A DNA stretch of 64,000 nt from Gemmatimonadota bacterium (GTDB lineage Bacteria > Gemmatimonadota > Gemmatimonadetes > Gemmatimonadales > GWC2-71-9), in contig JBGPLG010000001.1 in the NCBI GenBank assembly GCA_041486305.1, forward strand, positions 84,429-148,428, written 5' to 3'. The notes beneath the pieces are model-generated. The model had not been told where the DNA came from. It ran no database searches and was given only the letters and a program-made list of their open reading frames with translations. Both the position numbers and the translations under genes were made by a program. Shown here one piece after another: positions 10,326 to 30,744 of the stretch; within the stretch, counting starts at the first letter, position 1; every line of letters begins with the position of its first letter.

Positions 10326-10363
10326 GGCTGGCTCCGGTTGGTGTGGACCGTGTGGACGCCAGA

Positions 10364-14905: not shown

Positions 14906-14906
14906 C

Positions 14907-16388
14907 ATGCGCGCCGTTCCGGCGCTCCTCGCGCTCCTCGCGGCGGCCGGCTGCGCCGTGGGGCCGTCCACCGGGGTGCACCGGCCGGCGCCGGCGTCGG
15001 TGCGGCCGGCCGACAGCCTGACCGCACCCGGCTCCCGGGCCTTCCTGGATTCGCTGGCGGCGGTACGCGCGACCGACCGCCGCGACTCCACCCCCGCGCT
15101 CTGGGTCTCCCGGCGGCTGGCGCTCGACTCGCTGGGCGACCGCCCGTGGCTGGCGGTACTCGACGACTCGGTCCTGATGTCGATGGTCGAAGCCGCGATG
15201 TCCGACAACCAGGACCTGAAGGTGGCGGTGGCGCGGGTCAAGGAATACCGGGCGCTGCTGGGCGCCGCCCGCGGCGACCTCTTCCCCCAGGTCAATGCCG
15301 GCGGGTTGCGCAGCACCAACCAGAGCGTGTTCGGGGCATTCCCGGCCCAGAACTTCGAGGTGGTGCGGCTGACCGCCGACCTGGCGTGGGAGCTGGATTT
15401 CTGGGGCAAACTCCGGCGGCAGACCCAGGCGGCGGGGTTCGATCTCGGAGCGCAGGAAGCGGCGGAGCGCGCCGCGGTGGTGACCCTGGTGAGCGATGTG
15501 GTGACCGGCTACCTCGAGCTCCGGGAGCTCGACCAGGAAGTCGCGATCTCGGAACAGACGCTCGAGGCCCGGCGGGCCTCGCTGGCCCTGGCGCGGCGCC
15601 GGTTCACCGAGGGGGTCATCTCCGAGCTCGACGTGCGGCAGTTCGAGTCCGAGGCCGCGGCGCCGGCGGTCCGGGTGGCGGACTTCGCCCGCCAGCGCGC
15701 CGAGAAGGAGCACCAGCTTTCAGTCCTGCTGGGTCGGGCCCCGGGGCCGCTGCCGCGCGGCAGGCCGCTGGCGGAAATCGTGCAGGCGGTCATGGTGCCC
15801 GACTCGATTCCCGGGGAGCTCCTGCTGCGCAGGCCCGACGTCCGGCAGGCGGAGCGCGAGCTGCAGGCCGCCACGTCCCGGATCGGCGTGGCGATGGGAA
15901 ACCGCCTGCCGAGGATCGCGATCACCGGTCAGTACGGGCGGCAGCGGAGCGATTTTCATGATTTGTTCGGCAAGTCCGGCGAGGTGTACTTCGCGCAGCT
16001 GGGCATCACGCTGCCGCTGTTCACCGGCGGGAAGCTGCTCAACCAGCAGCGCGCCGCGAGCGCCCGGGCCGAGCAGGCCCGAGCCCGTTACGAGGCGGCG
16101 GTGCTCAACGCGCTTCGCGAGGCCGATGACGCCCTGGTCGGCCTCCGGCTCACCAAGGACCAGCTGGTGGCGCAGAACACCCAGGTGCTGGCGCTGAGCC
16201 GGGCCTTCGAGCTGGCCCGGCGCCGCTATGAAAACGGGGTGTCCAGCTACCTCGAGGTGCTGGATTCCCAGCGGGGGCTCTTCCAGGCCCAGCTCACCCT
16301 GGCTCAGACCGAGCGGCAATACCTCGGCGCGACGGTGCGGCTGTACAAGGCGCTGGGAGGAGGGTGGGGACCAACGCCGAGGCCCTGA
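14907..16388 (+). CDS. efflux outer-membrane factor lipoprotein (NodT/TolC family)
   Basis: Lipobox LLAAAGC. Two repeats of the OMF helical pattern. Starts 1 nt after the RND stop. Confidence 0.9.
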   Translation: MRAVPALLALLAAAGCAVGPSTGVHRPAPASVRPADSLTAPGSRAFLDSLAAVRATDRRDSTPALWVSRRLALDSLGDRPWLAVLDDSVLMSMVEAAMSDNQDLKVAVARVKEYRALLGAARGDLFPQVNAGGLRSTNQSVFGAFPAQNFEVVRLTADLAWELDFWGKLRRQTQAAGFDLGAQEAAERAAVVTLVSDVVTGYLELRELDQEVAISEQTLEARRASLALARRRFTEGVISELDVRQFESEAAAPAVRVADFARQRAEKEHQLSVLLGRAPGPLPRGRPLAEIVQAVMVPDSIPGELLLRRPDVRQAERELQAATSRIGVAMGNRLPRIAITGQYGRQRSDFHDLFGKSGEVYFAQLGITLPLFTGGKLLNQQRAASARAEQARARYEAAVLNALREADDALVGLRLTKDQLVAQNTQVLALSRAFELARRRYENGVSSYLEVLDSQRGLFQAQLTLAQTERQYLGATVRLYKALGGGWGPTPRP

Positions 16389-16461
16389 TCGCCCGCTCCT
16401 CGATTTCTTCGAGGATTGGTTCCTCCACGGCCTGGACGTCCGTGGTGGCGGCCGCAGGATC

Positions 16462-18360
16462 CTAGCCCGACGCGACGGTTTCCAGCTCCTCCCATCGCCG
16501 GGTCAGCTCGTCCAGCTCGGACCCGAGTGACGTGAGGCGCGCCTTCGCGGCGGCGGCGGCCGCTCCGTCCCGGAGCAGCACCGGGTCCGTGAGCGATTCA
16601 TAGAGCCGGGCCCGCTCCCGCTCCAGCGCGTCGATCCGCCCCGGCAGCTCGGCCAGCTCAGCGGCCTCCTTCATCGTCAGCCGGCGCTTCCTGGCCGGCC
16701 GCGCGGACTCCTGCGGTGGGGCCTTCCGGGCGGGACCCCCCGGCCCGGTCTTCTCCGCGGGATCCGGACCCCGCTGCCGCAACCAGTCGGAGTATCCGCC
16801 GACATATTCGCCCACGACCCCGCCGCCCTCCAGCACGAGGGTGCTGGTCACCACATTGTCGAGGAAGGTCCGGTCGTGGCTCACCACCAGGAGCGTGCCC
16901 GAGAAGCCGAGCAGCAGCTCTTCCAGCAGGTCGAGGGTCTCGATGTCGAGATCGTTGGTCGGTTCGTCGAGCACCAGCAGGTTGAATGAGCGGGTGAAGA
17001 GCCGCGCGAGCAGCAGCCGGTTGCGTTCGCCCCCGGAGAGCGCCTTGACCGGTGTGCGGGCCCGTTCCGCGGGGAAGAGGAATTCCTGCAGGTAGCCCAG
17101 CACATGCTTCCGCACCGGTCCGATCTCGACGACCTCGGCGCCATCGGCGACGCTCTCGAAAACGGTGCGCTCCGGATCGAGCTGCTCGCGGAGCTGATCG
17201 AAATACGCGATTTCGAGGCCGGTCCCCGGCGTTATCGTTCCGGTGTCCGGCGGAAGCTCTCCGATCAGCAGGCGGAGCAGCGTGGTCTTGCCGGAGCCGT
17301 TCGGCCCGATGATCCCCACGCGGTCCCCCCGCATGATCGTGGTGGTGAAGTTCCGCACCAGCACGCGGTCCCCGTGGGCGAAGCCCAGGTCCCGCGCCTT
17401 CACGACCAGCTTGCCGGAGCGCTCCGCCTCTTCCGCCTTGAGCCGGACGGTCCCGGCCCGCTCCCGGCGCATCCCTCGCTCGCGCCGGAGCGCCTCGAGG
17501 GCTCGGACCCGTCCCTCGTTTCGAGTGCGCCGGGCCTTGATACCGGTCCGGATCCAGATCTCCTCCCGGGCCAGTTTCTTGTCGAATTCCGCCCGCTCGC
17601 GTCCTTCCGCGGCGAGCGCCGCCTCCTTCCGCACCAGGTAGGTCTCGTAGGTGGGTCCCCAGTCCGCCAGGCGACCCCGGTCGAGCTCCACGATCCGGGT
17701 CGCCACCCGGCGGAGGAAGGCGCGGTCGTGGGTCACGAACAGCAGGGTGGAGGCGCGGTCGACCAGAAATTCCTCCAGCCAGGCGACCGCGTCGATGTCG
17801 AGATGGTTGGTGGGCTCGTCCAGCAGCAGGACATCGGGCTTCTGGACCAGCGCGCGCGCCAGGAGGACCTGCCGCTTGCCACCGCCCGAGGCGAGGGAAA
17901 ACGGCGCGTCGGCGTCGAGGCCCAGATGGGAGAGCACCGTCTCCACCCGGGTCTGCATCTGCCAGGCGCCGGCGGCATCGAGCGCGTGGTGAAGCCGGTC
18001 GAGCTCGCGCAGCGCGCCGTCGCTGGCGCGGGTGGCGACGTCGTGCCCGGCCTGGTGGTACCGGGTGAGGAGCAGGCCGGCGGGCCCCAGGCCGGCGGCG
18101 ACCACGTCGTAGGTGGAGCCGATGAGGTCGGGAGGCACGGCCTGCTCGAGACGCGCAACGGTGATGCCGGTCTGGCGCACGATGACGCCGCTATCGGGCG
18201 CGATGGTGCCGTCCAACAGCTTCATGACCGTGCTCTTGCCGGCGCCGTTGCGTCCCAGGAGGCAGACTCGCTCGCCTCGCTCCATGGAAAAGCCGGCCCG
18301 GTCGAGCACCGGCGGGCCCCCGAAGGCGAGGGTGAGGTCCTGCATGCCCAGGAGGGCCAT
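16462..18360 (-). CDS. ABC-F family ATPase (Uup-like), soluble
   Basis: Two NBDs with Walker A GRNGAGKST and GPNGSGKTT, signature LSGGERNRL, no TM segments, charged coiled-coil C-terminal tail. Confidence 0.92.
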   Translation of the reverse strand: MALLGMQDLTLAFGGPPVLDRAGFSMERGERVCLLGRNGAGKSTVMKLLDGTIAPDSGVIVRQTGITVARLEQAVPPDLIGSTYDVVAAGLGPAGLLLTRYHQAGHDVATRASDGALRELDRLHHALDAAGAWQMQTRVETVLSHLGLDADAPFSLASGGGKRQVLLARALVQKPDVLLLDEPTNHLDIDAVAWLEEFLVDRASTLLFVTHDRAFLRRVATRIVELDRGRLADWGPTYETYLVRKEAALAAEGRERAEFDKKLAREEIWIRTGIKARRTRNEGRVRALEALRRERGMRRERAGTVRLKAEEAERSGKLVVKARDLGFAHGDRVLVRNFTTTIMRGDRVGIIGPNGSGKTTLLRLLIGELPPDTGTITPGTGLEIAYFDQLREQLDPERTVFESVADGAEVVEIGPVRKHVLGYLQEFLFPAERARTPVKALSGGERNRLLLARLFTRSFNLLVLDEPTNDLDIETLDLLEELLLGFSGTLLVVSHDRTFLDNVVTSTLVLEGGGVVGEYVGGYSDWLRQRGPDPAEKTGPGGPARKAPPQESARPARKRRLTMKEAAELAELPGRIDALERERARLYESLTDPVLLRDGAAAAAAKARLTSLGSELDELTRRWEELETVASG

Positions 18361-18457
18361 GCTGATCCCGGTCAGAGGGAGGCGAAAGTTATCAGCGCGA
18401 GGCGCCGGGCACTCCCTCGGGCGTGACTAACAGAGCCGCGCGCGGTAGCTTCTCACC

Positions 18458-19900
18458 GTGACCATCCCCAACTACATCAACGGCGGCTGGACCAGGGCGT
18501 CGGGGGCCGACTCGCTCCCGGTCGTCGATCCCGCCAGCGGGGAGATGCTGGGCCGGGTTCCGCTCTCGTCGCGGGACGATGTCGCGGACGCGGTCGCCGC
18601 GGCGGCGCGGGCCTTTCCCGGCTGGCGCGCGGTGCCGGTGGTGGACCGGATCGCGGTGCTGTTCCGGCTCAAGACTCTGCTCGAGGAGCACCTGCCGGAG
18701 CTCGCCGAGCTGATGACCCGGGAACACGGCAAGACCAGGGACGAGTCGGCCGGCGAGATCAAGCGCGGGATCGAGAGTGTGGTGCACGCCTGCGCGATCC
18801 CGACACTCATGATGGGCGAGACGCTGGAGAATATCGCCGCCGGCGTCGACTGCGAGACCGTCCGGCAGCCGCTCGGCGTCTTCGCCGTGGTGACGCCCTA
18901 CAATTTTCCGGTGATGATCCCCCTCTGGTTCTGGCCCTTCGCGGTAGCCACCGGGAATACGGTGGTGCTCAAGCCGAGCGAGCGGGATCCGCTCACCCAC
19001 CAACGGGTCGTGGACCTGGCGTCCCTCGCGGGGCTGCCTGCGGGCGTGCTCAACGTGGTTCATGGCGACCGGGGAGCGGTCGCCGCGCTGCTCGAGCATC
19101 CCGACATCCAGGGCGTCTCGTTCGTCGGCTCCAGCGCGGTGGCGCGGAGCCTCTATGCCGCCGCCGCCGCGTCGGGCAAGCGGGTCCAGGCGCTGGGTGG
19201 CGCCAAGAACCACATGATCGTGCTCCCCGATGCGGATTTCGACGCCACCGCGAAGGCGGTGGTGTCCTCCGCGTACGGCGCGGCGGGCCAGCGCTGCCTC
19301 GCGGGGAGCGTCGTGGTGGGCGTGGGCGACGCCTATCGACCGATGCGGGATTCGATCCTGGAAGGCGCCGGGGAACTCAGGCTGGGCCACGGCCTGGAGT
19401 CCGGCGTCACCATGGGGCCGGTGATCTCCGCGGCGCACCGGGAGCGGGTCGCGGGCTATGTCGCCACCGGGGAGCGGGAAGGGGCGAAGCTTCTGCTCGA
19501 CGGGCGGAGTGCCCGCGTGGCCGGCCATCCCGCCGGCCACTGGTTCGGGCCCACGGTCTTCGAGGGCGTACTGCCGGAGATGTCGATCGGCCGCGAGGAG
19601 ATCTTCGGGCCGGTGGCTGGGCTCACCCGGGCCGACTCGCTCGAGGCCGCCATCGCTCTGGTGCACCGGAACCCGTACGGCAACGCCATCTCGCTCTTCA
19701 CCCGGAGCGGCGCCGCGGCGCGCGAATTCCGCTACCGGGCCGGCATCAGCATGATCGGGGTGAACATCGGCGTCGTGGCCCCGATGGCGTTCTTCCCGTT
19801 TGGCGGCTCGCGCGGGTCCTTCTACGGAGACCTGAAGGCCCAGGGCAAGGATGCGATCGAGTTCTACACCGACCAGCGGGTGGTGATCTCGAAGTGGTGA
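18458..19900 (+). CDS. mmsA: CoA-acylating methylmalonate/malonate-semialdehyde dehydrogenase
   Basis: Aldehyde dehydrogenase fold. Has NYINGGW, VVLKPSERDP, catalytic-Cys context AAGQRCLAGS, and no glutamate-type general-base block, as in MMSDH-type enzymes. GTG start. Confidence 0.82.
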   Translation: MTIPNYINGGWTRASGADSLPVVDPASGEMLGRVPLSSRDDVADAVAAAARAFPGWRAVPVVDRIAVLFRLKTLLEEHLPELAELMTREHGKTRDESAGEIKRGIESVVHACAIPTLMMGETLENIAAGVDCETVRQPLGVFAVVTPYNFPVMIPLWFWPFAVATGNTVVLKPSERDPLTHQRVVDLASLAGLPAGVLNVVHGDRGAVAALLEHPDIQGVSFVGSSAVARSLYAAAAASGKRVQALGGAKNHMIVLPDADFDATAKAVVSSAYGAAGQRCLAGSVVVGVGDAYRPMRDSILEGAGELRLGHGLESGVTMGPVISAAHRERVAGYVATGEREGAKLLLDGRSARVAGHPAGHWFGPTVFEGVLPEMSIGREEIFGPVAGLTRADSLEAAIALVHRNPYGNAISLFTRSGAAAREFRYRAGISMIGVNIGVVAPMAFFPFGGSRGSFYGDLKAQGKDAIEFYTDQRVVISKW

Positions 19901-19957
19901 GTACCGTGGGGACGGTGAGGACAGACGGACGGTTGAACGAACCACAGCGGAGGCCCT

Positions 19958-21262
19958 ATGACGACCGACATCGATCTCGCGAACGCCGTGAAATCCGGCT
20001 GGAAGGATTTCATCATCCCCGCCGCTCCGCCCTATTACAAGGATCCGCTGGTCATGGTCGAGGGCAGCGGCTCGACGGTGACCGACGCGGAGGGCCGGGA
20101 ATACCTCGACTTCTTCTGCGGCATCCTCACCACGGGAATCGGGCATTGTCACCCCGAGGTGGTGGAGCGGGTGCGGGAGCAGGTGGGGCGGCTGGGGCAC
20201 ACCTCGACGCTGTATCTCACCGAGCCGCAGGTGAACGCGGCGCGGCGGCTGGCCGGGATCGCGCCGGGCGCGCTCCGCAAGAGCTTCTTCACCAACAGCG
20301 GCACCGAGGCGGTGGAGACCGCAATCATGCTGGCGCGGATGTACACCGGGCGGGACGAGGTCGTCTGCCTCCGCTACGGTTACTCGGGCCGCTCGGTGCT
20401 CGCCACCAACATGACGGCGGTCAGCGGGTGGAACCCGCTGGGCGCGTCGGTGCCCTGGGTGAAGCACGCGCTGTCTCCCTACTGCTACCGCTGCGCCTTC
20501 GGGCCTCCCCACGACCGGTGCGCCGAGCGCTACGCCCAGGACGTGGAGGAGGCGATTCTCACCACCACCAGCGGCAAGCCGGCGGCGTTCTTCGCGGAGA
20601 CCATCCAGGGGGTCGGCGGGTACATTGTGCCGCCGCCGGGCTATTTCAAACTGGTGGCCGCGATCATCCGGAAACACGGCGGACTGTTCATCTCCGACGA
20701 GGTCCAGGCCGGCTTCGGCCGGACCGGCGACAAGTGGTTCGGCATCGAGCACTGGGGTGTCGAGCCGGACATCATGGTGATGGCCAAGGCGGTGGCCAGC
20801 GGATTCCCGGTCGGCGCGACCATCACCACCGACGAGATCGCCTCGGCCTGGAAGGGCAAGACCATTTCGACCTTCGGCGGCAATCCCATCTCCATGGCGG
20901 CCATGGACGCCACCCTCGAGGTAATGGAGCGCGAGCGGGTGCCGGCCCGGAGCGCCGAGCGGGGACGTCAGCTCCGGGCCGGGCTCGACCGGCTGTTCGC
21001 CCGGCACGAGTGGATCGGCGAGGTGCGCGGGATGGGCCTGATGCAGGCCCTGGAGCTGGTGGAGAACCGGGAAACCAAGGAGCCCAGCCCCCGGAAGGCA
21101 GCGGCGCTGCTCCAGGCGGCCAAACAAGAGGGGCTGCTCATCGGGACCGGAGGGATGTACGGCCACGTGATCCGCATGGCCCCCCAGATGCTGATGAGCG
21201 AGGCGGAAATCGCCGACGGCCTCGAGCGGCTGGCCCGGGCCTGCGGGGCGATCGGCGCGTGA
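19958..21262 (+). CDS. class-III PLP aminotransferase (AGXT2 / beta-alanine- or 3-aminoisobutyrate-pyruvate type)
   Basis: Has GILTTGIGHCHPEVV, SDEVQAGFGRTG and the Schiff-base lysine region VMAKAVASGFP. Confidence 0.88.
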   Translation: MTTDIDLANAVKSGWKDFIIPAAPPYYKDPLVMVEGSGSTVTDAEGREYLDFFCGILTTGIGHCHPEVVERVREQVGRLGHTSTLYLTEPQVNAARRLAGIAPGALRKSFFTNSGTEAVETAIMLARMYTGRDEVVCLRYGYSGRSVLATNMTAVSGWNPLGASVPWVKHALSPYCYRCAFGPPHDRCAERYAQDVEEAILTTTSGKPAAFFAETIQGVGGYIVPPPGYFKLVAAIIRKHGGLFISDEVQAGFGRTGDKWFGIEHWGVEPDIMVMAKAVASGFPVGATITTDEIASAWKGKTISTFGGNPISMAAMDATLEVMERERVPARSAERGRQLRAGLDRLFARHEWIGEVRGMGLMQALELVENRETKEPSPRKAAALLQAAKQEGLLIGTGGMYGHVIRMAPQMLMSEAEIADGLERLARACGAIGA

Positions 21263-21768
21263 CCGATCGGCTCACGATCACCGTCACCGTCAACGGGGCC
21301 CGCCACGAGCGCGCCGTCGAGTCCCGCTTGCTGCTCTCCGACTTTCTGCGCCACGACCTCGGCCTCACCGGTACCCATGTCGGGTGCGAGCACGGGGTCT
21401 GCGGCGCCTGCACCGTGCTGCTCGATGGCGAGGCGGTGCGGTCCTGCCTGGTGTTCGCGGTCCAGACCGACGGCCACGCCGTCGAAACGGTGGAGAGCTT
21501 GGCCACGGATGGTGTGCTCGATCCCCTGCAGACCGCCTTCCATGACGCGCACGGCCTGCAATGCGGTTTCTGCACCCCCGGCATCCTGATGACCCTGGTG
21601 CCGTGGCTCCGGCACCATCCCGCTCCGAATGAAGTCGACATCCGCGAGGCGATCTCCGGCAACCTCTGCCGCTGCACCGGCTATGCCAACATCGTGAAGG
21701 CGGTGGAACTCGCGGTCTCTCGGTTGGCGGACGGGCGGACCGGCGGACCGGCGGGAGCTCGATCGTGA
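21259..21768 (+). CDS. (2Fe-2S)-binding small subunit of XDH/CoxS-family molybdenum hydroxylase
   Basis: Internal GTG start in the frame of ORF 19894-21768. Cys clusters CEHGVCGACTV and CGFCTPG...CRCTGY. GTGA overlap with the aminotransferase stop. Confidence 0.88.
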   Translation: MTDRLTITVTVNGARHERAVESRLLLSDFLRHDLGLTGTHVGCEHGVCGACTVLLDGEAVRSCLVFAVQTDGHAVETVESLATDGVLDPLQTAFHDAHGLQCGFCTPGILMTLVPWLRHHPAPNEVDIREAISGNLCRCTGYANIVKAVELAVSRLADGRTGGPAGARS

Positions 21769-24116
21769 AGCCGGGCCGCTACATGGGGCAGAGTGTTCCC
21801 CGTCTCGAGGACGCCAAGCTGCTCACCGGCCGGGCCCTCTTCGTCGACGACGTCCAGCTTCCCGGCATGCTCCACGCGGCGTTTCTCCGGAGCGACGACG
21901 CCCACGGGATCCTCAGGAGCATCGATGCGAGCGCGGCGCGCGAGCGCGCCGGTGTGGTGGCGGTGTATACGGCGCAGGATCTGGGCGACTACTGGCGCCC
22001 CGGCCCCCTGCTGGTGCCGCCGCCGCCGATCACGGGCCTGGTATTCAATGCGGCCACCCAGGTGCCCCTGGCGCGGGACAAGGTGCGCCACGGCGGCGAG
22101 GCGCTCGCGATGGTGGTGGCTGAGAGCCGCTACATCGCCGAGGACGCGCTGGAGGACATCGTCGTCGAGCTCGAGCCCCTCGCCGCGGTCACCGACCTCG
22201 AGGCGGCCCTCCGGCCCGGCGCCTCACTGGTCCACGAGCAGTTCGGCACCAACCTCGCTGCGCACGTCCATCAGTCCAAGGGAGACTATGCCGGCGCGCG
22301 CGCGGCGGCCGCCCTGGTGGTAGCGCGCCGGTTCCGCTACGACCGCGGGGCCTCCGCGGCCATCGAGAACCGGGGCATCGTGGCCGAGTGGGACGCCCGG
22401 GCCGAGCAGCTGACCGTCTGGGACACCACCCAGGCCCCGATCCCGATCCGGAACGGACTCGCGGCGATGCTGGGTCTGGGCGAATCCCAGGTCCGGGTCA
22501 TCGCGCCGTTCATCGGGGGCGGATTCGGACCCAAGATCATGATGTTTTACCCCGAAGAAGTGCTGTTGCCCTGGGCCGCGATGCGGCTGGGCCGGCCGCT
22601 GAAATGGATCGAGGACCGCCGGGAGAATTTCTACGCCACCACTCAGGAGCGGCTTCAGATCCACGATGCCGAGCTGGCGGTTGCGCAGGACGGCCGCATC
22701 CTGGGCGTGAAGGACACCTTCCTGCACGACACCGGGGCCTACGATCCCTACGGCCTGACAGTCCCGATCAACAGCCAGTGCACCCTGCTCGGCCCCTACG
22801 TGGTTCCCAACTACGACAGCGAGTTCACCGCGGTCTTCACCAACACGCCGATCGTCACCCCGGTCCGCGGCGCCGGACGGCAACACGGCGTGTTCGTCAT
22901 GGAGCGGCTGCTGGATTTTGCGGCCCGGGAGCTGGGCATCGACCGAGTGGAGATCCGGCGCCGCAACCTCATCCCGCCGGACGCCTTCCCCTACGATCAC
23001 GAGATCCTGTTCCAGGACTTCCGTCCGCTGGTCTACGACAGCGGGAACTATCCCGCCGCGCTCCACAAGGCGGTGGAGATGATCGGGTACGAGGCGTTCA
23101 TCCGCAGCGAGCAGCCCCGGCTCCGGCGCGCGGGCCGCCGGGCCGGCATCGGGGTGGTGTCCTACATCGAGGGAACCGGCATCGGGCCCTACGAAGGCGC
23201 CCGGGTGACGGTGGAGCCCAGCGGCCTGGTGCGGGTCGCCACCGGGGTCGGCACCCAGGGCCAGGGGCACTTCACCACCTTCGCGCAACTGGTGGCCGAG
23301 CAGCTCGGCGTGGAAGTGGACCGGGTACGGGTGGTGACGGGAGATACCCGCGAGTTCCACTGGGGCACCGGCACCTTTGCGAGCCGGGGCGCGGTGGTCG
23401 CGGGCAATGCCTGCCACGCCGCGGCGCTCAAGGTCCGCGACAAGATCATCGCGCTGGCGGCGCGGCTGCTGGAGGCGGAGCCCGGGCAGGTCGTGGTCGA
23501 GGGCGGAAGCGCCTGCGTCCGTGGGGCTCCCGACCGGAGCTTCACGCTCGGCGAGCTGGCCCGGCGGGCCAATCCGCTGCGCGGCGCCGTGACGCCGGGC
23601 ACCGAGCCCGGGCTGGAGGCCACCGCCTACTTCGGCCCCGACCGCGGCAACGCCGCCAGCGGGGTGCATGCGATGATCGTCGAGGTGGACCCCGACACCG
23701 CCGCGGTGGAGATCAAGCGCTACGTGGTGGTGCACGACTGCGGCGTGGTGATCAACCCCGTCGTGGTCGAGGCCCAGGTGCAGGGCGGCGTGGCCCACGG
23801 GATCGGAAACGCCTTCTACGAACAGCTGATCTTCGACGACAACGGCCAGCTGATGAATGCCTCGTTCATGGACTACCTCCTGCCCACCGCGCTGGACGTG
23901 CCCACCGTGGAGATGGCCCACCTCGAGACCCCCTCGCCCCTCAACCCGCTCGGTACCAAGGGCGTCGGAGAAGCCGGTGCGATTCCCACCGGCGCGCTGT
24001 TCGCCCAGGCGGTCGAGGACGCCCTCTCCGGCACCGGGGTCGAGATCACCGAGATCCCACTCAGCCCCAACCGGCTGTTCGAGCTGATCACGCAGGCCAA
24101 GGGAGCCGCGGCATGA
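21765..24116 (+). CDS. molybdopterin-binding large subunit of XDH/aldehyde-oxidase/CoxL family
   Basis: 783 aa with a/b-hammerhead N-terminus, PVRGAGRQHG and C-terminal GTKGVGEAG motifs. GTGA overlap with the small subunit. Confidence 0.9.
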   Translation: MKPGRYMGQSVPRLEDAKLLTGRALFVDDVQLPGMLHAAFLRSDDAHGILRSIDASAARERAGVVAVYTAQDLGDYWRPGPLLVPPPPITGLVFNAATQVPLARDKVRHGGEALAMVVAESRYIAEDALEDIVVELEPLAAVTDLEAALRPGASLVHEQFGTNLAAHVHQSKGDYAGARAAAALVVARRFRYDRGASAAIENRGIVAEWDARAEQLTVWDTTQAPIPIRNGLAAMLGLGESQVRVIAPFIGGGFGPKIMMFYPEEVLLPWAAMRLGRPLKWIEDRRENFYATTQERLQIHDAELAVAQDGRILGVKDTFLHDTGAYDPYGLTVPINSQCTLLGPYVVPNYDSEFTAVFTNTPIVTPVRGAGRQHGVFVMERLLDFAARELGIDRVEIRRRNLIPPDAFPYDHEILFQDFRPLVYDSGNYPAALHKAVEMIGYEAFIRSEQPRLRRAGRRAGIGVVSYIEGTGIGPYEGARVTVEPSGLVRVATGVGTQGQGHFTTFAQLVAEQLGVEVDRVRVVTGDTREFHWGTGTFASRGAVVAGNACHAAALKVRDKIIALAARLLEAEPGQVVVEGGSACVRGAPDRSFTLGELARRANPLRGAVTPGTEPGLEATAYFGPDRGNAASGVHAMIVEVDPDTAAVEIKRYVVVHDCGVVINPVVVEAQVQGGVAHGIGNAFYEQLIFDDNGQLMNASFMDYLLPTALDVPTVEMAHLETPSPLNPLGTKGVGEAGAIPTGALFAQAVEDALSGTGVEITEIPLSPNRLFELITQAKGAAA

Positions 24117-24574
24117 TCGTCGAAGGCACCTACACCTTTCCCGGCCCGCGCGAGGTGGTCTTTCGGCTGCTGCTGGATCCCGACGTTCTCGCCAAGACGA
24201 TGCCAGGCGCCACCAGTATTGCGCGGGTGAACGAGGACCGCTACGAGGGAAAGATGGGCGTCGGCATCGGCCCGATCACGGCGGCGGAATTCGACGTTGT
24301 CATCACGATGACCGAGAAGGTGGTTCCCGAGAGCTATCAGATGCAGATCGACGGGCGCGGCCGCTTCGGCTTCACCCGGGGGAAGGCGTCAGTCCGGCTG
24401 ACCGCCGACGGCGAGTCCACCGTCATGCACTACGAGGCCGACATGATGGTGGGCGGCAAGATCGCGGCGGTGGGCCAGCGGCTGCTCGATTCGGTGAGCC
24501 GCATGATGCTGAAGCAGGGGCTCGAGGCGATGAGCGCCGAGCTGGACCGCCGGCTGGGCAAGGAACCGGCGTGA
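24113..24574 (+). CDS. CoxG-like SRPBCC protein
   Basis: 153 aa. Starts MIVEGTYTFPGPREVVFRLLLDPDVLAKTMPG, typical of the CoxG family. ATGA overlap upstream and GTGA overlap downstream. Confidence 0.8.
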   Translation: MIVEGTYTFPGPREVVFRLLLDPDVLAKTMPGATSIARVNEDRYEGKMGVGIGPITAAEFDVVITMTEKVVPESYQMQIDGRGRFGFTRGKASVRLTADGESTVMHYEADMMVGGKIAAVGQRLLDSVSRMMLKQGLEAMSAELDRRLGKEPA

Positions 24575-25461
24575 AGCCACCGGCCTTCGAGTACTTCCGT
24601 CCCGCCTCGGTCTTGGAGGCGCTCGATCTCCTGGCCGCACGGCCCGGGGCCAAGCCGTTGGCGGGCGGACAGAGCCTGATCCCCGCCATGAACTTCCGGC
24701 TCGCGGCGCCGGAGGCCCTGGTCGATCTCAACGGGATCGCCGCGCTATCCGGCATCACCCGGCTCCCGGACGGCGGCCTCCGGCTGGGCGCCATGACCCG
24801 GCACCATGCCGTCGAGACCAGCCCCCTGGTGGCGGCGCATGCGCCGCTACTCGCCGAGACGATGCCGTTCGTCGCCCATCCCCAGATCCGCAATCGCGGC
24901 ACCGTGGGCGGCAGCCTGGCCCACGCCGACCCGGCGGCCGAGCTGCCGGCGGTGATGCTGGCGCTCGAAGCCGTTCTCGTGCTCACCAGCCGGACCGGAG
25001 AGCGGCGGCTTCCGGCCGCCGGGTTCTTCACGGGGCTCTTCGCGACCGCGCTCGCGCCAGGGGAGCTGCTCACGGCCATCGAGCTTCCCGCGCGGGCGGC
25101 CGCCACCGGCTCCGCGTTCATCGAGCAGGCGCGCCGCCACGGTGACTACGCTCTGGTCGGCGTAGCGGCCACCGTCACGTTGGCCGGCTCCGGCGAGTGC
25201 GATGCCGCGCGGGTGACCCTCTTCAGCGTCGGGGAGGGGCCGGTGCTCGCGGAGCGCGTGGCGGTGGCGCTGGAAGGGCTGCGCCCCGATGCGGGCGTGG
25301 TCGAGGCCGCGGCCCACGCGGTACAGGGAGACATCGATCCGCCATCCGATATCCACGCCGGCGCCGCCTACCGCCGCCAGCTTGCGCGAGTGCTCACCGG
25401 CCGGGCGCTCGAGCGCGCCTTCCAGCGGGCCCGCGCGCACCAGTCCAACCCGGAGCAGTGA
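24571..25461 (+). CDS. FAD-binding medium subunit (CoxM/XdhB-like)
   Basis: 296 aa. Has FEYFRPASVLEALDLL and the LAGGQSLIP motif of the PCMH-type FAD domain. Confidence 0.88.
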   Translation: MKPPAFEYFRPASVLEALDLLAARPGAKPLAGGQSLIPAMNFRLAAPEALVDLNGIAALSGITRLPDGGLRLGAMTRHHAVETSPLVAAHAPLLAETMPFVAHPQIRNRGTVGGSLAHADPAAELPAVMLALEAVLVLTSRTGERRLPAAGFFTGLFATALAPGELLTAIELPARAAATGSAFIEQARRHGDYALVGVAATVTLAGSGECDAARVTLFSVGEGPVLAERVAVALEGLRPDAGVVEAAAHAVQGDIDPPSDIHAGAAYRRQLARVLTGRALERAFQRARAHQSNPEQ

Positions 25462-26264
25462 TGCGAACCTACGACCTGTCCCAGCCGCTGAACCAGGAGG
25501 TTTCCTTCTGGCCCTACTATCCGCCGTTCGAGGTGAAGTACATCAAGCGCAAGGCGGAACACGGGGTGAACGCGCAGTACATCCAGACCTCGAACCACAT
25601 GGGCACCCACCTCGATGCGCCGCGCCACTTCGTGACCAACGGCCGGACCATCGACGAGATTCCCATGGAGTGGCTCTGCGGTCCGGGCGTGGTGGTGGAC
25701 CTGCGCGACGAGATGGGCGACCTGGCGCTCTACACCCCGCAGATGATCGAGAAGCGGGTCAAGGTCAAGCCGGGCGACATGCTGATCCTGCACACCGGCT
25801 TTCACGTCCACTCGCAATTCGGCGCCGAGGCGGACGAGGAGCGCTACATCCACCTGCACCCCGGGGCGCATCCCGACATGGTGCCATGGCTGCTCAAGAA
25901 GGGGATTCACATCTGGGGCGTGGACTGCATTTCCACCGACCACCCGATGAACCTTCCCATCGGCCGGTTCCTGGGCAAGGGCATGCACGACCATTGGGCC
26001 CGGGTCCGGGCCAAGGCCGAAGAGAAGTTCGGCGGCAGGAAGGCGGTGGACAAGCTGTTCCCCGACTCGGCCTACCAGCTGACCCATAACGCGCTGTTTC
26101 CGAAGGACTGCATGCACATCGAGAACCTGGGCGGGGAGATCGACGCGCCGGAGCTCCAGAACAAGCGCATGATCCTGGGCTGCTTCCCGTGGAAGTTCCG
26201 CGGCGGCGAAGCGGCCTTCTGCCGGGCGGTGGCATGGCAGGGCGAGTGGCCGAAGAATCCATGA
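25461..26264 (+). CDS. cyclase-family metal hydrolase (kynurenine/aryl-formamidase-like)
   Basis: Internal ATG in the frame of ORF 25197-26264. HMGTHLDAPRH matches the HxGTHxDxPxH motif of the putative-cyclase family. The start overlaps the previous stop (TGATG). Confidence 0.82.
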   Translation: MRTYDLSQPLNQEVSFWPYYPPFEVKYIKRKAEHGVNAQYIQTSNHMGTHLDAPRHFVTNGRTIDEIPMEWLCGPGVVVDLRDEMGDLALYTPQMIEKRVKVKPGDMLILHTGFHVHSQFGAEADEERYIHLHPGAHPDMVPWLLKKGIHIWGVDCISTDHPMNLPIGRFLGKGMHDHWARVRAKAEEKFGGRKAVDKLFPDSAYQLTHNALFPKDCMHIENLGGEIDAPELQNKRMILGCFPWKFRGGEAAFCRAVAWQGEWPKNP

Positions 26265-26286
26265 CCACCGGGGGCCCCCGGCCCTG

Positions 26287-27696
26287 ATGCCCGATCTCAC
26301 CGCCGTCGACATAGCGGGTAGGGTCGCGAGCAGGGAACTGAGCCCCGTGGCGGTCGTCGAAGCCGCGCTCGCGCGCGTGGCCGCGCTCAATCCCCGCCTC
26401 AACGCCATCGTCACGCTCAACCCGCGCGCCCTCGACGACGCCCGCGCCCTGGAGCGGCGTATTGCGCGGGGCGAGGTCGTGGGCGCCCTGGCGGGCGTGC
26501 CGGTCGGCATCAAGGATGTGACCCAGGTGGCGGGCCTCCGCACCACCTTCGGCGCTCCGCTCTACGCCGACCACGTTCCCGAGCGCGACGCCCTGGTGGT
26601 CGAGCGGCTCCGCGCCGCCGACGCCATCATCCTCGGCAAGACCAACACCCCCGAGTTCGCCGCCGGCGGTAACACCTGGAACGACGTGTTCGGTCGGACC
26701 CGGAATCCCTGGAACCTCCAGAAGAGCGCCGGCGGCTCGACCGGGGGCGGCGCGGTCGGCCTCGCGACCGGCATGATCGCACTCGCCGAAGGCACCGACC
26801 TGGGCGGATCGCTCCGGATTCCGGCGTCGTTCTGCGGCGTCGTTGGTCTCCGGCCATCGCCCGGGCTGGTGCCGACGGTCCCCACCGATTTCGTCTGGGA
26901 CACGCTCCAGGTGAGCGGCCCCATGGCGCGCACCGCGCTCGATCTGGCGCTGATGCTCCAGGCCATCGCCGGGCCCAGCGCCCTGTCCCCGCTGCGGCAG
27001 CCGATCCGGCATCGCGATTTCGTGGCCGCGGTACGCAACGGGCCGCTCCCCGGGCTCCGGGTCGCCTACTGTGCGGACATTGCCGGGATCGGCATTGATC
27101 CCGCGGTCGAGGCCGTCTGCCGTCGCGCCGCAAACCGGCTGGCGGGGCAGGGCGCGCAGCTGGACGTGATCGACCTCGATTTGAGCGCGGGACGCGACGC
27201 GTTTCTCGCGCTCCGGGGTCACTGGTTCGCCTCCTGGATGTCGGAGCGGCTCGACCGGCTGGACCAATTCGGGGTCAACGTCCGGAACAACACCCGGGCC
27301 GGCATCGAAGCGGTGGGAAAGGACCTCGGGCAGGCGGAGATGGTGCGGGGCCGGATCTGGCACCGATTCCACGAGCTCTTCGGGCGCTACGATCACCTCC
27401 TGACGCCCACCATGGCGGTGGCGCCGTTTCCGGTCGAGCAGAACTATCCCGAGACCGTCGCCGGGAAGAAGATGCGGACATACGTCGACTGGCTCGCGCC
27501 TACCTTCGTCCTGAGTCTCACCGGGCTGCCGGTGGCCTCGGTGCCCTGCGGGCTGGATCCCGACGGCATGCCGGTGGGCCTGCAGGTGGTGGGGCCGCCG
27601 GAGGGAGAGGAGGCCGTGCTCGCGCTGGCGCAGGTGCTGCAGGACCTCCACCCGATCGGCGGTCCGGCGATGGCCGGAAGCACTATTCCGTCTTGA
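26287..27696 (+). CDS. amidase-signature family amidase
   Basis: 469 aa. Has GVPVGIKD and the Gly/Ser-rich signature GGSTGGGAVGLATG. Confidence 0.9.
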   Translation: MPDLTAVDIAGRVASRELSPVAVVEAALARVAALNPRLNAIVTLNPRALDDARALERRIARGEVVGALAGVPVGIKDVTQVAGLRTTFGAPLYADHVPERDALVVERLRAADAIILGKTNTPEFAAGGNTWNDVFGRTRNPWNLQKSAGGSTGGGAVGLATGMIALAEGTDLGGSLRIPASFCGVVGLRPSPGLVPTVPTDFVWDTLQVSGPMARTALDLALMLQAIAGPSALSPLRQPIRHRDFVAAVRNGPLPGLRVAYCADIAGIGIDPAVEAVCRRAANRLAGQGAQLDVIDLDLSAGRDAFLALRGHWFASWMSERLDRLDQFGVNVRNNTRAGIEAVGKDLGQAEMVRGRIWHRFHELFGRYDHLLTPTMAVAPFPVEQNYPETVAGKKMRTYVDWLAPTFVLSLTGLPVASVPCGLDPDGMPVGLQVVGPPEGEEAVLALAQVLQDLHPIGGPAMAGSTIPS

Positions 27697-30409
27697 GGGC
27701 CCGGAGCGGATCGACCTGGGTGGCCCTCCGGGCCGGCAGGTAACACGCAACGAGGGCCACCCCGGCCAGAATGAGCGGGACGGCCGTGAACGTAGCCGCG
27801 TCGGTCGCCCCGATTTCGAAGAGCATGTAGGCCATCAGGCGCGTGACGCCGAGGGCCGCGGCCACCCCGAGCGCGATCCCCCCCGCGGCGAGCGCCATCC
27901 CTTCGCCGAGCACCAGCCCGATCACGTCGGGGGCCCGCGCCCCCAGCGCGATGCGCACCCCGATTTCCTGGGTCCGCTGCGCCACGGCATAGTGGAGCAG
28001 GCCGTACAGCCCCACGGCCGCGAGAGCCAGCGCGAAGGCGGCGAATCCGGCCAGCAGCCAGGTCTGGAACCGCCGCGCCGTGCTCAGCGCGCCCAGCGCG
28101 CGGTCGGCGGTGCCGACGCTCAGGATCATCAGGGTCCGGTCCACCGACCGGATCTCCTGCCGGACCGCTGGCGCCAGCGCGAGCGGATTCCCGTCGGTCC
28201 GCAACACCAGGTCGGTCGATCCGCCCAGGTTCGAGCCGAAGTACTCGGGAATGACCCCCTTCTCCAGTCCCTGCCGGTGCATGTCACCCACCACGCCGAC
28301 GATTTCGTACCAGTACACCTTGGGCGGCGCTCCGAGGTAGAACCGCCGGCCGATCGGGTCCCGGTCGGGAAAGAACCGCTGCACGAAGGCCTGGTTCACG
28401 ACCGCGGCCTCCGCCGGCCCCGCGTAATCGACTGCTTCGGATGTGACGAGCAGGTGAACCGCAGCGACCGCGTCCCCCTGGGAATGCAGACGACCCCTCC
28501 GCAGGGGAACCCGCATTGTGGAGAAGAAGCCCGGATCGACCGAACTCGACGCCAGTTGTCCGGTGCCGCCGCCGCCGGGGCCACCCGCGCCGCCCTCGAC
28601 GGTGATGGACTGGTCGGGGTTGTCTCGTCGGAGCAGGCTGCTCACCGCCCCGACATCGCGGACTCCGTGTACGCCCGCAAGGCGCTCGGTAAGCGTGGCC
28701 AGGGCAGCCAGCCTCCGTCCATACACGGTTTCTGCGGGCCCTCGAACTGCAGCGGCCGCTACCCGCACCAGCAGCACATGGTCGGGATCGAAACCCGGAT
28801 CGACCGCTTGCAGGCGCACGGCGCTCCGGATCAGGAGGCCCGCGCCGATGAGCAGGACCACCGCGAGCGCGCACTCGGCCACGACGAGCAGGCTCCGGAT
28901 CCGGCGGGTGCCGGACGCGCCCGGGCCGCCGGTCTTGAGCGCGTCGTTCGGGTTGCTGCGGGACAGTGTCCACGCCGGCACGATGCCGAAGAGAATGCCC
29001 GCGAGAATCGACACGCCCGCCATGAATGCCAGCACCGTCCCGTCCACCCGCATCCCGTCGATCCGGGCGATCCCAGGCGGTGCCGCCGCCGCGAGCACCC
29101 GCACCACCGCCGCCGCGAGGGCCAGGCCCGCCGCGCCGCCGATCCCCGCGAGAGTCAGGCTTTCGGTGAGCAACTGCCGCAATAGGCGCAGCCGGCCGGC
29201 GCCGAGGGACACCCGCACTGCCAATTCGCGGCCCCGGGCGGCCCCGCGCGCGAGCTGCAGGCTGGCGAGGTTCACGCAGGCGATCAGCAGCACCAGGCCG
29301 ACCGCCCCCAGCAGCACCCACAGTGCGCGCTGCAGGTTCTTTCCGGTGACCTGGTCCAGCAGCGGGACCACGGTCACGCCGAACCCGGGAAAATCCGGGT
29401 CCGGGCTGGGATAGGCCTGGGCCAGCCGCCGGCCGATGGCATCCATGTCGACCTGCGCGGCGGAGAAGCTGGCGCCCGGAGCGAGCCGTCCTACCACCCG
29501 CCAGTTGTTGAAGAAGCGGTCTCCACTCTCGCGCTGGAGCCGCCAGTAGGAGGTGACCGGCTCCCAGAGCTGGGTGCCGGGACCGGGGAAGAAGAACTCC
29601 GGCGGCATGACGCCGATGACCCGGACGCTGCGCGGCCCGCCTTTCGACGCGGTACCGTCGCCATCCAGGGAGAGGAACTTGCCTACGACGTCCCGGCGGC
29701 CGCCGAACCGGCGCTGCCAGAGTCCATAGCTCAGCACGACTACTGGCTCGCGCCGCTGCTGGTCCTCGGCGGTGATGCCGCGTCCCAGCAGCGGCTCGGC
29801 GCCGAGGAGAGGGAACAGCCGCGTTGATACGAAGCTGCTGGTGGTCCGCTCGGGCTCGTCTCCCCCCAGCAGGGTGACCGTATTGTCGAAGCTGAATACC
29901 GCCAGCTCGGCGAAGGTCCGGGTCTGGGCCTGCCAGTCCCGAACGGTAGGAAACGAGGTTTCCACCTCGTGGAGCCCGCGCCGGACGTCGTCGGTCCAGA
30001 GGACGGCGAGACGATCGGCGTCCCGGAACGGGAGCGGGCGCAGGATCACGGCGTTGACGCTGCTGAAGATCGCGGTCGTCGCGCCGATGCCGAGGGCCAG
30101 GGTGAGCAGGGCCACCAGCGTAAAGCCCGGGTTCTTCCGCAGCGAGCGCGCCGCATAGCGGAAATCGCTCCCGACCGACTCGAGGTTCGCTTCCCACCCG
30201 CCGCTCCGGGCCTCCTCCTTCACCGCGGCGACGCTTCCGAGCTCCAGCCGGGCCGCCCGCGCGGCCGATTCCGGCGTCATGCCACCGCGAATCCGCTCCC
30301 GGGTGGCCTGCGCGAGGTAGTCCTGCACCTCGTCGTCCAGCTCCGCCTCGACCGCGCGGCGCCGAAACAGGCCGCGCAGTCCATCCCGGATGGATCGCAG
30401 CAGCGCCAT
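27683..30409 (-). CDS. ADOP-type duplicated MacB/FtsX permease with prefix domain (copy 3)
   Basis: Start at ATG 30409 (MALLRSIRDGLRGLFRRRAVEAELDDEVQDYL). Prefix motif GGMTPESAARAARLELGS, TM1 [36 protein letters not shown], tail PARRATQVDPLRALKTE. Confidence 0.9.
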   Translation of the reverse strand: MALLRSIRDGLRGLFRRRAVEAELDDEVQDYLAQATRERIRGGMTPESAARAARLELGSVAAVKEEARSGGWEANLESVGSDFRYAARSLRKNPGFTLVALLTLALGIGATTAIFSSVNAVILRPLPFRDADRLAVLWTDDVRRGLHEVETSFPTVRDWQAQTRTFAELAVFSFDNTVTLLGGDEPERTTSSFVSTRLFPLLGAEPLLGRGITAEDQQRREPVVVLSYGLWQRRFGGRRDVVGKFLSLDGDGTASKGGPRSVRVIGVMPPEFFFPGPGTQLWEPVTSYWRLQRESGDRFFNNWRVVGRLAPGASFSAAQVDMDAIGRRLAQAYPSPDPDFPGFGVTVVPLLDQVTGKNLQRALWVLLGAVGLVLLIACVNLASLQLARGAARGRELAVRVSLGAGRLRLLRQLLTESLTLAGIGGAAGLALAAAVVRVLAAAAPPGIARIDGMRVDGTVLAFMAGVSILAGILFGIVPAWTLSRSNPNDALKTGGPGASGTRRIRSLLVVAECALAVVLLIGAGLLIRSAVRLQAVDPGFDPDHVLLVRVAAAAVRGPAETVYGRRLAALATLTERLAGVHGVRDVGAVSSLLRRDNPDQSITVEGGAGGPGGGGTGQLASSSVDPGFFSTMRVPLRRGRLHSQGDAVAAVHLLVTSEAVDYAGPAEAAVVNQAFVQRFFPDRDPIGRRFYLGAPPKVYWYEIVGVVGDMHRQGLEKGVIPEYFGSNLGGSTDLVLRTDGNPLALAPAVRQEIRSVDRTLMILSVGTADRALGALSTARRFQTWLLAGFAAFALALAAVGLYGLLHYAVAQRTQEIGVRIALGARAPDVIGLVLGEGMALAAGGIALGVAAALGVTRLMAYMLFEIGATDAATFTAVPLILAGVALVACYLPARRATQVDPLRALKTE

Positions 30410-30414
30410 GACGC

Positions 30415-30744
30415 TCACGCCTCGAGCAGCCGGGCGATGGCGGCCGTCCGGCGGGCCCAGTTCCGCGTTTCGGCCGCGAGCTGCTTCTGCCCCTTCGCGG
30501 TGAGCGCGTAGTACTTGGCGGTGCGGTTGTTCTCGGTGGCCCGCCACTCCGCTTTCAGCACCCCGGAGCGCTCCAGCCGCCGGAACGCCAGGAGCAGGGA
30601 GCCGGGGTTGACCTTGAAGACGCCCCGGCTGATCTGCTCGATGCGCCGCCCGATGCCGAACCCGTGCATCGGCTCCAGGGACAGCGACTTGAGGATCAGC
30701 AGATCCAGGGTGCCCTGAATGACGTCGGTCGACTCGCCCGGCAT
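30415..30744 (-). CDS. PadR family transcriptional regulator (acidobacterial-type)
   Basis: MPGESTDVIQGTLDLLILKSLSLEPMHGFGIGRRIE...NRTAKYYALTAKG. ATG 30744 preferred over the TTG at 30786. Confidence 0.88.
   Translation of the reverse strand: MPGESTDVIQGTLDLLILKSLSLEPMHGFGIGRRIEQISRGVFKVNPGSLLLAFRRLERSGVLKAEWRATENNRTAKYYALTAKGQKQLAAETRNWARRTAAIARLLEA

Follow-up and report, generated by a model that had tools for sequence, protein, structure and literature searches.

Introduction

Opening of a hydroxylated N-heterocyclic ring by a PF04199 cyclase has been described for HpoH of Rhodococcus rhodochrous PY11 and for PKC, which is encoded on plasmid pAO1 of Paenarthrobacter nicotinovorans. Both enzymes hydrolyze a C-N bond of 2,3,6-trihydroxypyridine with formation of 2-ketoglutaramate, which is subsequently converted by an amidase (PMC6214936, PMC9304392, PMC6117287). 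On pAO1 the genes pkc and kdhL, the latter a Mo-hydroxylase gene, belong to one operon (PMC6214936). In this study we compare these and related systems with a gene cluster of a soil bacterium of the Gemmatimonadales (Gemmatimonadota) that encodes a Mo-hydroxylase, a PF04199 cyclase and an amidase. The cluster occupies positions 18458-27696 of a DNA stretch of 64,000 nucleotides (positions 84,429 to 148,428 of contig JBGPLG010000001.1, assembly GCA_041486305.1), which has a G+C content of approximately 70% and is termed the window throughout. The succession of hydroxylation, cyclase-catalyzed ring opening and deamidation is a known logic, and by analogy the window cluster appears to be an uncharacterized variant of it.

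The oxidative catabolism of pyrimidines has been known biochemically since the 1950s. As described for Rhodococcus erythropolis, this pathway employs a Mo/Fe-S/flavin dehydrogenase, a ring-opening amidohydrolase and an acyl-urea amidase and leads to malonate (PMC3758960). Its known barbiturase is an AtzD/TrzD enzyme with the so-called Toblerone fold. HpdA of Ensifer adhaerens HP1 is a four-component 3-hydroxypyridine dehydrogenase which requires an SRPBCC/CoxG-like fourth component; the downstream steps given there begin at 2,5-dihydroxypyridine, unlike those of the window system (bioRxiv 10.1101/2020.01.08.898148). As an XDH-family N-heterocycle hydroxylase with an SRPBCC subunit, HpdA resembles the window enzyme in composition. 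Its pathway reportedly continues via the maleamate route. The same subunit set, including CoxG, is also found in form-I aerobic CO dehydrogenase (CoxSML/CoxG).

Results

The functional unit of the window cluster is a conserved catabolic module, consisting of the small (S), large (L), CoxG (G) and FAD-binding (F) subunits of a Mo-hydroxylase together with a cyclase (cyc) and an amidase (ami), and not a unit of eight genes. Eight genes are present on the plus strand, and each open reading frame (ORF) ends with one terminal stop codon. The first two encode MmsA, a CoA-acylating (methyl)malonate-semialdehyde dehydrogenase (18458-19900; TIGR01722, 587.7 bits with a cut-off of 448.5), and a class-III aminotransferase (AT) of the beta-alanine/3-aminoisobutyrate type (19958-21262; PF00202). 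They are followed by the genes for the [2Fe-2S] subunit S (21259-21768; PF01799, PF00111), the molybdenum cofactor-containing subunit L of the CoxL/Qor/Kdh branch (21765-24116), the CoxG/SRPBCC subunit (24113-24574; PF06240), the FAD-binding subunit F (24571-25461; PF00941, PF03450), the cyclase (25461-26264) and an amidase-signature amidase (26287-27696). Stop and start codons overlap at 21259-21262, 21765-21768 and 24571-24574 (GTGA), at 24113-24116 (ATGA) and at 25459-25463 (TGATG), while mmsA and AT are separated by 57 nt and the cyclase and amidase genes by 22 nt. A preliminary description of this DNA, made from the sequence alone, had reported eight co-directional genes with five overlaps. 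Its coordinates and junctions were confirmed, and its family assignments proved right in Pfam and NCBIfam comparisons.

In order to analyze the conservation of the cluster, a genome scan with the cyclase was performed. It yielded 389 related stretches, the best 80 of which were analyzed. These 80 cyclase-centred loci (cited by L numbers below) originate from Gemmatimonadales, Vicinamibacterales, Solibacteraceae and a few others, all within the Gemmatimonadota and Acidobacteriota, and the nearest ones are metagenome-assembled genomes (MAGs) of Gemmatimonadales. The window proteins were compared with these loci by tblastn, the flanking regions by ORF clustering. In both phyla the block S-L-(G)-F-(NCS1)-cyc-ami recurred, NCS1 being a permease gene. 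Median identities to the window proteins were 73% for S, 75% for L, 62% for F, 52.5% for CoxG, 82.5% for the cyclase and 70% for the amidase. CoxG was found in 56 loci, and the amidase gene follows the cyclase gene in 74. Apart from the genes for the NCS1 permease and an AMP-binding synthetase, ORF clustering of the 80 loci revealed no other widely conserved flanking gene, and the core is retained where flanking genes differ. The preservation of the six-gene order in dozens of species is the strongest sign that the association is more than chance.

Rearranged clusters point in the same direction. On Longimicrobium contigs the order is ami, a small ORF, the acyl-CoA synthetase gene (ACS, on the opposite strand), S, L, G, F and cyc. 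Here the amidase gene has been relocated upstream yet kept, and ACS lies divergently, directly upstream of S; the proteins are 52-77% identical to those of the window, the synthetase 68-69%. Retention of amidase and synthetase despite this rearrangement argues for function and not for inherited synteny. A Thermoanaerobaculia contig carries S-L-F-cyc-ami without CoxG and without the synthetase. CoxG, a core component that is missing in some lineages, is also absent from 10 of the 11 loci of one Gemmatimonadota subgroup (L037, L038, L041-L043, L045, L048, L053, L058, L062, L077), L077 being the one that has it. The same eleven loci contain a second, divergently oriented XDH-family L upstream (28-30% identity) and, with the exception of L042 and L053, a second S at 43-51% identity. 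In some relatives a GxxExxY gene (TIGR04256) of approximately 500 bp is located between cyc and ami (e.g., L001:2347-2841, L012:10838-11343); the window has no such gene at this site, only the 22-nt gap. The module is thus widespread in uncultured soil phyla, accompanied in Gemmatimonadota by a MatB-like synthetase and in many genomes also by an NCS1 permease.

The two leading genes of the block, mmsA and AT, appear from their distribution to be an independent beta-alanine/3-aminoisobutyrate module. Both were absent from all 80 cyclase-centred loci in tblastn searches. A genome scan with AT gave 80 AT-centred loci; mmsA adjoins AT in 50 of them, and the core follows AT in none of the 80. Several MAGs that hold the core carry AT orthologs with 78-85% identity on other contigs: JAXIPC01 (core in L003, AT in L248), CAZYPO01 (L004, L249), MFD04944 bin 1 (L011, L257) and MFD04944 bin 2 (L012, L303). 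A blastn comparison with the syntenic locus L003 matched its positions 10-5706, starting from the AcrAB/OEP genes, to window positions 10654-16362 and its positions 5817-12166 to window positions 21277-27629. Thus, L003 runs from AcrAB/OEP straight into S, and a 4.9-kb segment containing an ABC-F gene, mmsA and AT (window 16363-21276) is missing at the same site.

In Lewinellaceae and Saprospiraceae (L311, L315, L318-L320, L322) the pair is part of a complete reductive pyrimidine operon, mmsA-AT-NCS1-dihydropyrimidinase-CN_hydrolase-PreT-PreA, whose AT orthologs are more distant than the Gemmatimonadota ones. The window pair resembles the terminal module of these operons, whereas homologs of PreA/PreT, dihydropyrimidinase and CN-hydrolase were absent from the window in homology searches. 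In Gemmatimonadota the pair is usually accompanied by an S58 (DmpA/BapA-type) aminopeptidase, an SSF symporter and an Amidohydro_3 protein (e.g., L263:2383-3630, L283:3145-4623, L278:12889-14592), which hints at the catabolism of beta-alanine-containing peptides.

These results bear on the earlier proposal that all eight genes constitute one self-contained route, in which an omega-amino acid released by the core would be converted to an acyl-CoA by AT and MmsA. The single strand and the five overlaps, including that of AT and S, agree with such a route, and in other phyla the last steps of pyrimidine breakdown are indeed assigned to orthologs of AT and MmsA. However, the two modules were never found together in either set of 80 loci, relatives keep the AT ortholog on another contig, the syntenic L003 lacks ABC-F, mmsA and AT, and the core is conserved together with a CoA ligase of the dicarboxylate type and not with a transaminase. 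The eight-gene block is therefore not conserved as one unit, which the preliminary description itself had named as a ground for refutation, and a common route is improbable. Among the loci examined, the eight-gene arrangement is a fusion of two modules that occurs in this window only. Since the AT stop codon overlaps the S start codon, mmsA-AT is probably co-transcribed with the core in this lineage, but the overlap is no proof of a shared pathway.

The Mo-hydroxylase comprises the XDH/CoxL-family subunit set, with a two-[2Fe-2S] subunit S, an FAD subunit and L. The translation of S contains the cysteine motifs CEHGVCGAC and CGFCTPG...CRCTGY. In L the hammerhead domain and two molybdenum cofactor-binding domains (PF01315, PF02738, PF20256) all scored far above cut-off; the motifs GVGEAG and TTQAP, which were seen in the translation, are candidates for the sites of the catalytic Glu and the Mo-site Gln. 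Solved relatives of L with similar scores are CoxL (8uem, the best full-length match), quinoline 2-oxidoreductase Qor (1t3q) and 6-hydroxypseudooxynicotine dehydrogenase Kdh (7dqx), Kdh being the best solved match of the central active-site segment.

According to automated names, S-L-G-F would be an aerobic CO dehydrogenase with the cyclase and amidase as unrelated neighbors. The best full-length match to a CoxL and the top NCBIfam model, CODH_aero_grp5 (NF040766), agree with this name. However, L reached only 904 bits with that model (cut-off 950) and 535 bits with TIGR02416 (cut-off 991), and all its NCBIfam hits remained below cut-off. The active-site loop TPVRGAGRQ aligned to AYACSFR/AYRCSFR of 8uem and 1ffu and lacks the cysteine of the copper-binding AYxCSFR loop of form-I CoxL; the loop reads AYRAPGR in Kdh and AYRGVGF in Qor. 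Furthermore, the association of cyclase and amidase with the hydroxylase is retained in different phyla and in rearranged clusters. CO dehydrogenase identity was consequently rejected as very improbable, and L probably lies among the N-heterocycle hydroxylases. Because the best curated model is a CO dehydrogenase and the score is just under its cut-off, genes of this kind may easily be mistaken for CO dehydrogenases. A role of the Mo enzyme as an analog of the reductive dihydropyrimidine dehydrogenase, which would turn the eight genes into a reductive pathway, was likewise rejected, since mmsA-AT is unlinked to the core elsewhere and reduction of C=C bonds is not known for XDH-family Mo enzymes.

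The cyclase matched PF04199 with an E-value of 2e-37 and contains the motif HMGTHLDAPRH, which corresponds to H46xGTHxDxPxH56. Its closest PDB sequences are the kynurenine formamidase KynB (2e-15) and isatin hydrolases. An assignment as KynB was rejected, since the protein reached 70 bits with TIGR03035 (cut-off 223) and is approximately 60 residues longer than KynB. The AlphaFold model was of moderate quality (predicted local distance difference test score 74.6), poor around the metal site, and used for fold membership only; with Foldseek all 32 significant PDB hits were PF04199 enzymes. In a library clustered at 50% identity the cyclase family formed one tight group of at least 67% identity, and the paralog clades, at no more than 45%, were clearly set apart from it. 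The cyclase is the best conserved protein of the block, with approximately 80% identity between Gemmatimonadota and Acidobacteriota. A complex of cyclase and hydroxylase might account for such extreme conservation, as might frequent transfer between phyla.

Three cyclase clades are linked to Mo-hydroxylase genes. The sister clade P0254, which is 42-45% identical to the window cyclase, shows the same tightness although its members come from Ignavibacteriota, Verrucomicrobiota, Bacteroidota and others, at least five phyla altogether. Its cyclase lies within cyc-F-S-L operons in 61-68 of 80 loci, with an L that is only approximately 30% identical to the window L, and upstream of these genes are homologs of a thiolase-like protein, a DUF35-type protein, AllH, AllF (FdrA) and AllG. 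A full ten-gene operon was observed among L165-L244 (e.g., L214:6956-14593, L201:3898-14512), encoding an unknown protein of 249 amino acids, a thiolase-like protein, a DUF35/ChsH2-type OB protein, AllH, AllF (FdrA), AllG, cyclase, FAD subunit, S and L, with hosts from Ignavibacteriota, Verrucomicrobiota, Bacteroidota, Zixibacteria and Elusimicrobiota. It looks like an uncharacterized Mo-hydroxylase pathway ending in phosphorolytic acyl-urea cleavage. In E. coli the acyl-urea oxalurate is cleaved by AllFGH, the oxamic transcarbamylase (PMC11326118). Thus, the AllF, AllG and AllH homologs beside the sister clade point to acyl-urea products.

The third clade is haloarchaeal (39% identity) and occurs with XdhC, S, L, CoxG, FAD subunit and NCS2 permease genes. 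One example is L245 on the plasmid NZ_CP099994.1 (83300-104040) of the cultured organism Halorussus salilacus, with genes for XdhC, a MobA-like protein, S, L, CoxG, FAD subunit, the cyclase (39%), a CocE/NonD hydrolase, an SLC23/NCS2 permease and an amidohydrolase. This locus is a possible experimental entry point.

A Rhodococcus ruber plasmid encodes an HpoH-like homolog with 36% identity to the window cyclase; its gene adjoins those of a nitrilase-type hydrolase and a Rieske dioxygenase in an Hpo-like 2-hydroxypyridine cluster. Like HpoH/PKC, the window cyclase has a long C-terminal part, which together with the motifs DHP(M/L)N, (E/D)N and FPW..GGE is common to the window, P0254, haloarchaeal and R. 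ruber proteins. Judged from these features, the cyclase belongs to the long, HpoH/PKC-like branch of PF04199. Orthology to HpoH/PKC was not supported, as other clades (39-45%) are equally close or closer than the HpoH-like protein. Unlike HpoH/PKC, the window cyclase falls into a separate orthogroup, its partner is an amidase-signature and not a nitrilase-type enzyme, and window-type clusters contain an NCS1 permease and a MatB-like ligase without any ring monooxygenase or dioxygenase.

The amidase matched PF01425 with an E-value of 6e-100 and possesses the Ser-cisSer-Lys motifs GIKD, GGSTGG and GGSLRIPA; no NCBIfam equivalog was reached for this protein. A 1.4-kb NCS1 permease gene (PF02133) is present in approximately 30-36 of the 80 core loci. 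In many Gemmatimonadota it separates F from cyc, and in several Vicinamibacterales it lies upstream of S. The permease of L018:1781-3241 scored above the TIGR00800 cut-off (361.1 versus 353.1 bits). The nearest models are allantoin permeases, the solved relative is the hydantoin transporter Mhp1, and the core-locus NCS1 is approximately 51% identical to the NCS1 of the complete reductive pyrimidine operons. In L011:8696-10001, from a long-read MAG, the gene is split into two ORFs by a sequencing frameshift or as a pseudogene.

In the window the AMP-binding MatB-like synthetase gene is located at 30858-32375 on the minus strand. The best PDB matches of its product are the malonyl-CoA ligases 3nyq and 4fuq (E approximately 1e-86), and MatB enzymes or MatB chimeras occupy the first five places among the PDB sequences (4e-86 to 7e-83), with the next match at 2e-66. 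The gene was found convergent to the core, 0-6 kb after the amidase gene, in 29 of the 80 loci, all of them Gemmatimonadota. Together with the Longimicrobium arrangement this places the synthetase, noted before merely as lying nearby, in the conserved neighborhood of the module. As a conserved partner it points to a dicarboxylate product and not to an omega-amino acid.

Alternatively, the synthetase might act first and activate a heteroaromatic carboxylate, with the Mo-hydroxylase acting on the CoA ester. Furoyl-CoA dehydrogenase HmfABC with HmfD and 4-hydroxybenzoyl-CoA reductase are models for such a CoA-thioester route. An AMP-binding ligase beside the hydroxylase in two arrangements and a ligase score under the curated MatB cut-off are in line with it. 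However, the ligase is absent from Acidobacteriota clusters, its best matches are MatB by a wide margin, and NCS1 permeases transport neutral nucleobase-like rings, so that we regard this order of reactions as hardly probable.

The block is bordered upstream by an ABC-F ATPase gene on the opposite strand (16462-18360), which is itself preceded by an AcrB/OEP pair, and downstream by the gene of an ADOP-type MacB/FtsX permease on the minus strand (27683-30775; PF12704, PF02687). Relative to L001-L003 the latter is an insertion between amidase and synthetase genes: window positions 27630-30874 have no counterpart in L001, L002 and L003, where the synthetase gene lies approximately 0.04-1.2 kb after the amidase gene. 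This permease is outside the system. In total, three large ADOP-type MacB_PCD/FtsX permeases are encoded on the minus strand of the window (27683-30775, 34924-37584 and 44672-47410). ADOP permeases in combination with the AcrB/OEP pair pointed to Gemmatimonadota or Acidobacteriota. An ORF of 601 codons on the plus strand (38030-39835) shows a strong coding signal (G+C content at third codon positions 0.85) and had no Pfam match. The sole Rfam match in the window is a tRNA gene (2322-2394, plus strand), and Rfam scans of the window and four loci revealed no regulatory element or riboswitch that would name a ligand. Scans for consensus promoters and terminators were negative, which is weak evidence at 70% G+C.

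Discussion

From the observed gene families, conservation pattern and module boundaries we infer the following reactions and substrate. A nucleobase-like ring would be imported, and the hydroxylase would add an oxo group on an sp2 carbon beside a ring nitrogen to give a cyclic imide. The cyclase-fold enzyme, a putative cyclic imide/ureide ring opener, would then hydrolyze a ring C-N bond as HpoH/PKC do with trihydroxypyridine. The amidase would cut the resulting acyl-amide or acyl-urea, and the synthetase would activate the acid product. In general terms this three-step mechanism of hydroxylation, ring opening and deamidation is likely by analogy with HpoH/PKC. The preliminary description had proposed the same steps, which the HpoH/PKC precedent and the linkage in three cyclase clades support; its terminal omega-amino acid did not stand.

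Applied to uracil, the sequence would be uracil, barbiturate, ureidomalonate, malonate plus urea, and malonyl-CoA. Several lines of evidence favor uracil or thymine. The MatB-like synthetase agrees with malonate or methylmalonate as the final product, the permease is of a suitable type with approximately 51% identity to the NCS1 of reductive operons, the sister clade has acyl-urea-cleaving partners, and barbiturate would resemble the imide tautomer of trihydroxypyridine. Stepwise, the predicted chemistry is that of the classical oxidative pathway. The exclusion of this pathway in the preliminary description was thus right with respect to the enzyme families, which differ, whereas by chemistry it is the best fit. 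No AtzD/TrzD barbiturase (PF09663) was found among the eight proteins, and tblastn with AtzD and an actinomycete member detected none in the window or the 80 core loci. Uracil or thymine is the most likely substrate, and the cluster would then represent a pathway of oxidative pyrimidine degradation whose barbiturase has no relationship to the known AtzD-family one. Uracil or thymine specifically is nevertheless a tentative assignment, with odds that we place somewhat on the lower side.

Actinomycetes provide a further argument by a possible connection to the classical pathway. Their L subunits with 45-48% identity to the window L are encoded in NCS2-F-S-L-CoxG-CN_hydrolase units, which lie 0.4-7 kb from AtzD/barbiturase-family and carbamate-kinase-like genes. 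Such units next to these genes were seen in L084, L086, L155, L158 and L159; L155 also contains a gene with an FdrA-like CoA-ligase domain. These units are candidates for a classical oxidative pyrimidine or related ureide cluster. When plasmids were searched by tblastn with AtzD, an Embleya replicon was found with an AtzD-family gene 7 kb from F-S-L-G, and no Rhodococcus record was obtained. The Rhodococcus barbiturase was not reached from pADP-1 AtzD, the 120 matches listed all being AtzD homologs of at least 61% identity.

The same data have to be weighed against a hydroxypyridine or pyridone route, in which, for example, 3-hydroxypyridine or 2,5-dihydroxypyridine would be converted to 2,3,6-trihydroxypyridine, opened by the cyclase to 2-ketoglutaramate and cleaved by the amidase to 2-oxoglutarate and ammonia. 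HpoH/PKC is the sole biochemically assigned ring opener in the cyclase branch (PMC6214936, PMC6117287), the best solved match of the active-site segment of L is the pyridine-ring hydroxylase Kdh, and a four-component hydroxylase with an SRPBCC subunit works on 3-hydroxypyridine (bioRxiv 10.1101/2020.01.08.898148). On the other hand, 36% identity to the HpoH-like homolog is at paralog level and is equalled by other clades, known 2-ketoglutaramate amidases belong to the nitrilase family and not to the amidase-signature family (PMC9304392), the permease is of the uracil/allantoin/hydantoin type, and no role is left for the retained MatB-like synthetase. A pyridine substrate is therefore quite unlikely.

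Another cyclic ureide or amide, of the hydantoin/imidazolone type, purine-derived or otherwise pyrimidine-like, would follow the same three-step logic with a different product acid. The relationship of NCS1 to allantoin and hydantoin transporters and the co-occurrence of the sister clade with oxalurate-type AllFGH enzymes would suit such a compound, with which the uncharacterized L subfamily is also compatible. However, Mo-hydroxylases require an sp2 C-H next to nitrogen, which hydantoin and allantoin lack, and the MatB-like partner best suits malonate or methylmalonate. We consider a ureide of this kind unlikely, though less so than a pyridine.

Further observations weigh against uracil or thymine as substrate and against the module as delimited here. 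The F-S-L unit lies within 10 kb in only approximately 10 of 81 actinomycete AtzD-family loci, which makes that link suggestive only, and 45-48% identity is no proof of L orthology. The characterized cyclase branch, reached via the HpoH-like homolog, acts on a pyridine and not on a pyrimidine ring. The synthetase scored below the cut-off of PRK07514, the NCBIfam malonyl-CoA synthase (396 versus 558 bits), and is adjacent in Gemmatimonadota only. The NCS1 gene was absent from the window in a homology search, and ORF clustering of the 80 loci showed no recurrent urease or urea-amidolyase genes near the cluster. The AT/S overlap leaves room for functional coupling to the beta-alanine module in this genome. 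No cultured carrier of the core was identified, no dedicated search of closed cultured genomes having been made, and among the papers searched none ties these families to uracil dehydrogenase or ureidomalonase or names the genes of these two enzymes.

Taken together, a conserved catabolic module with the proposed steps, acting on uracil or thymine via barbiturate and independent of mmsA-AT, has in our estimation a probability of roughly 45%. The more far-reaching statement is doubtful, namely that the cluster is the oxidative uracil/thymine gene set of Gemmatimonadota and Acidobacteriota, providing the first gene assignments found for uracil/thymine dehydrogenase and ureidomalonase as well as a cyclase-fold barbiturase unrelated to that of the AtzD family, and that long PF04199 cyclases are the regular ring-opening partners of Mo-hydroxylases in bacteria and archaea, with which they would constitute a general module of hydroxylation and subsequent hydrolysis.

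Conclusions

The comparison illustrates that tight start/stop overlaps in a single genome are no proof of a common pathway. Soil MAGs of Gemmatimonadota and Acidobacteriota are rich in Mo-hydroxylase genes of this branch, and the reassignment of such genes to a conserved N-heterocycle module alters gene counting in surveys of trace-gas and nitrogen cycling. The pairing of three cyclase clades with Mo-hydroxylases offers a testable annotation rule for many entries named "cyclase family protein". There is a realistic chance that the cluster provides the genes so far lacking for the oxidative breakdown of pyrimidines. Homologs of AtzD/barbiturase occur in roughly 3% of genomes (PMC3758960). If the substrate is uracil or thymine, the oxidative pathway would gain genes and would be spread far more widely than these homologs imply.

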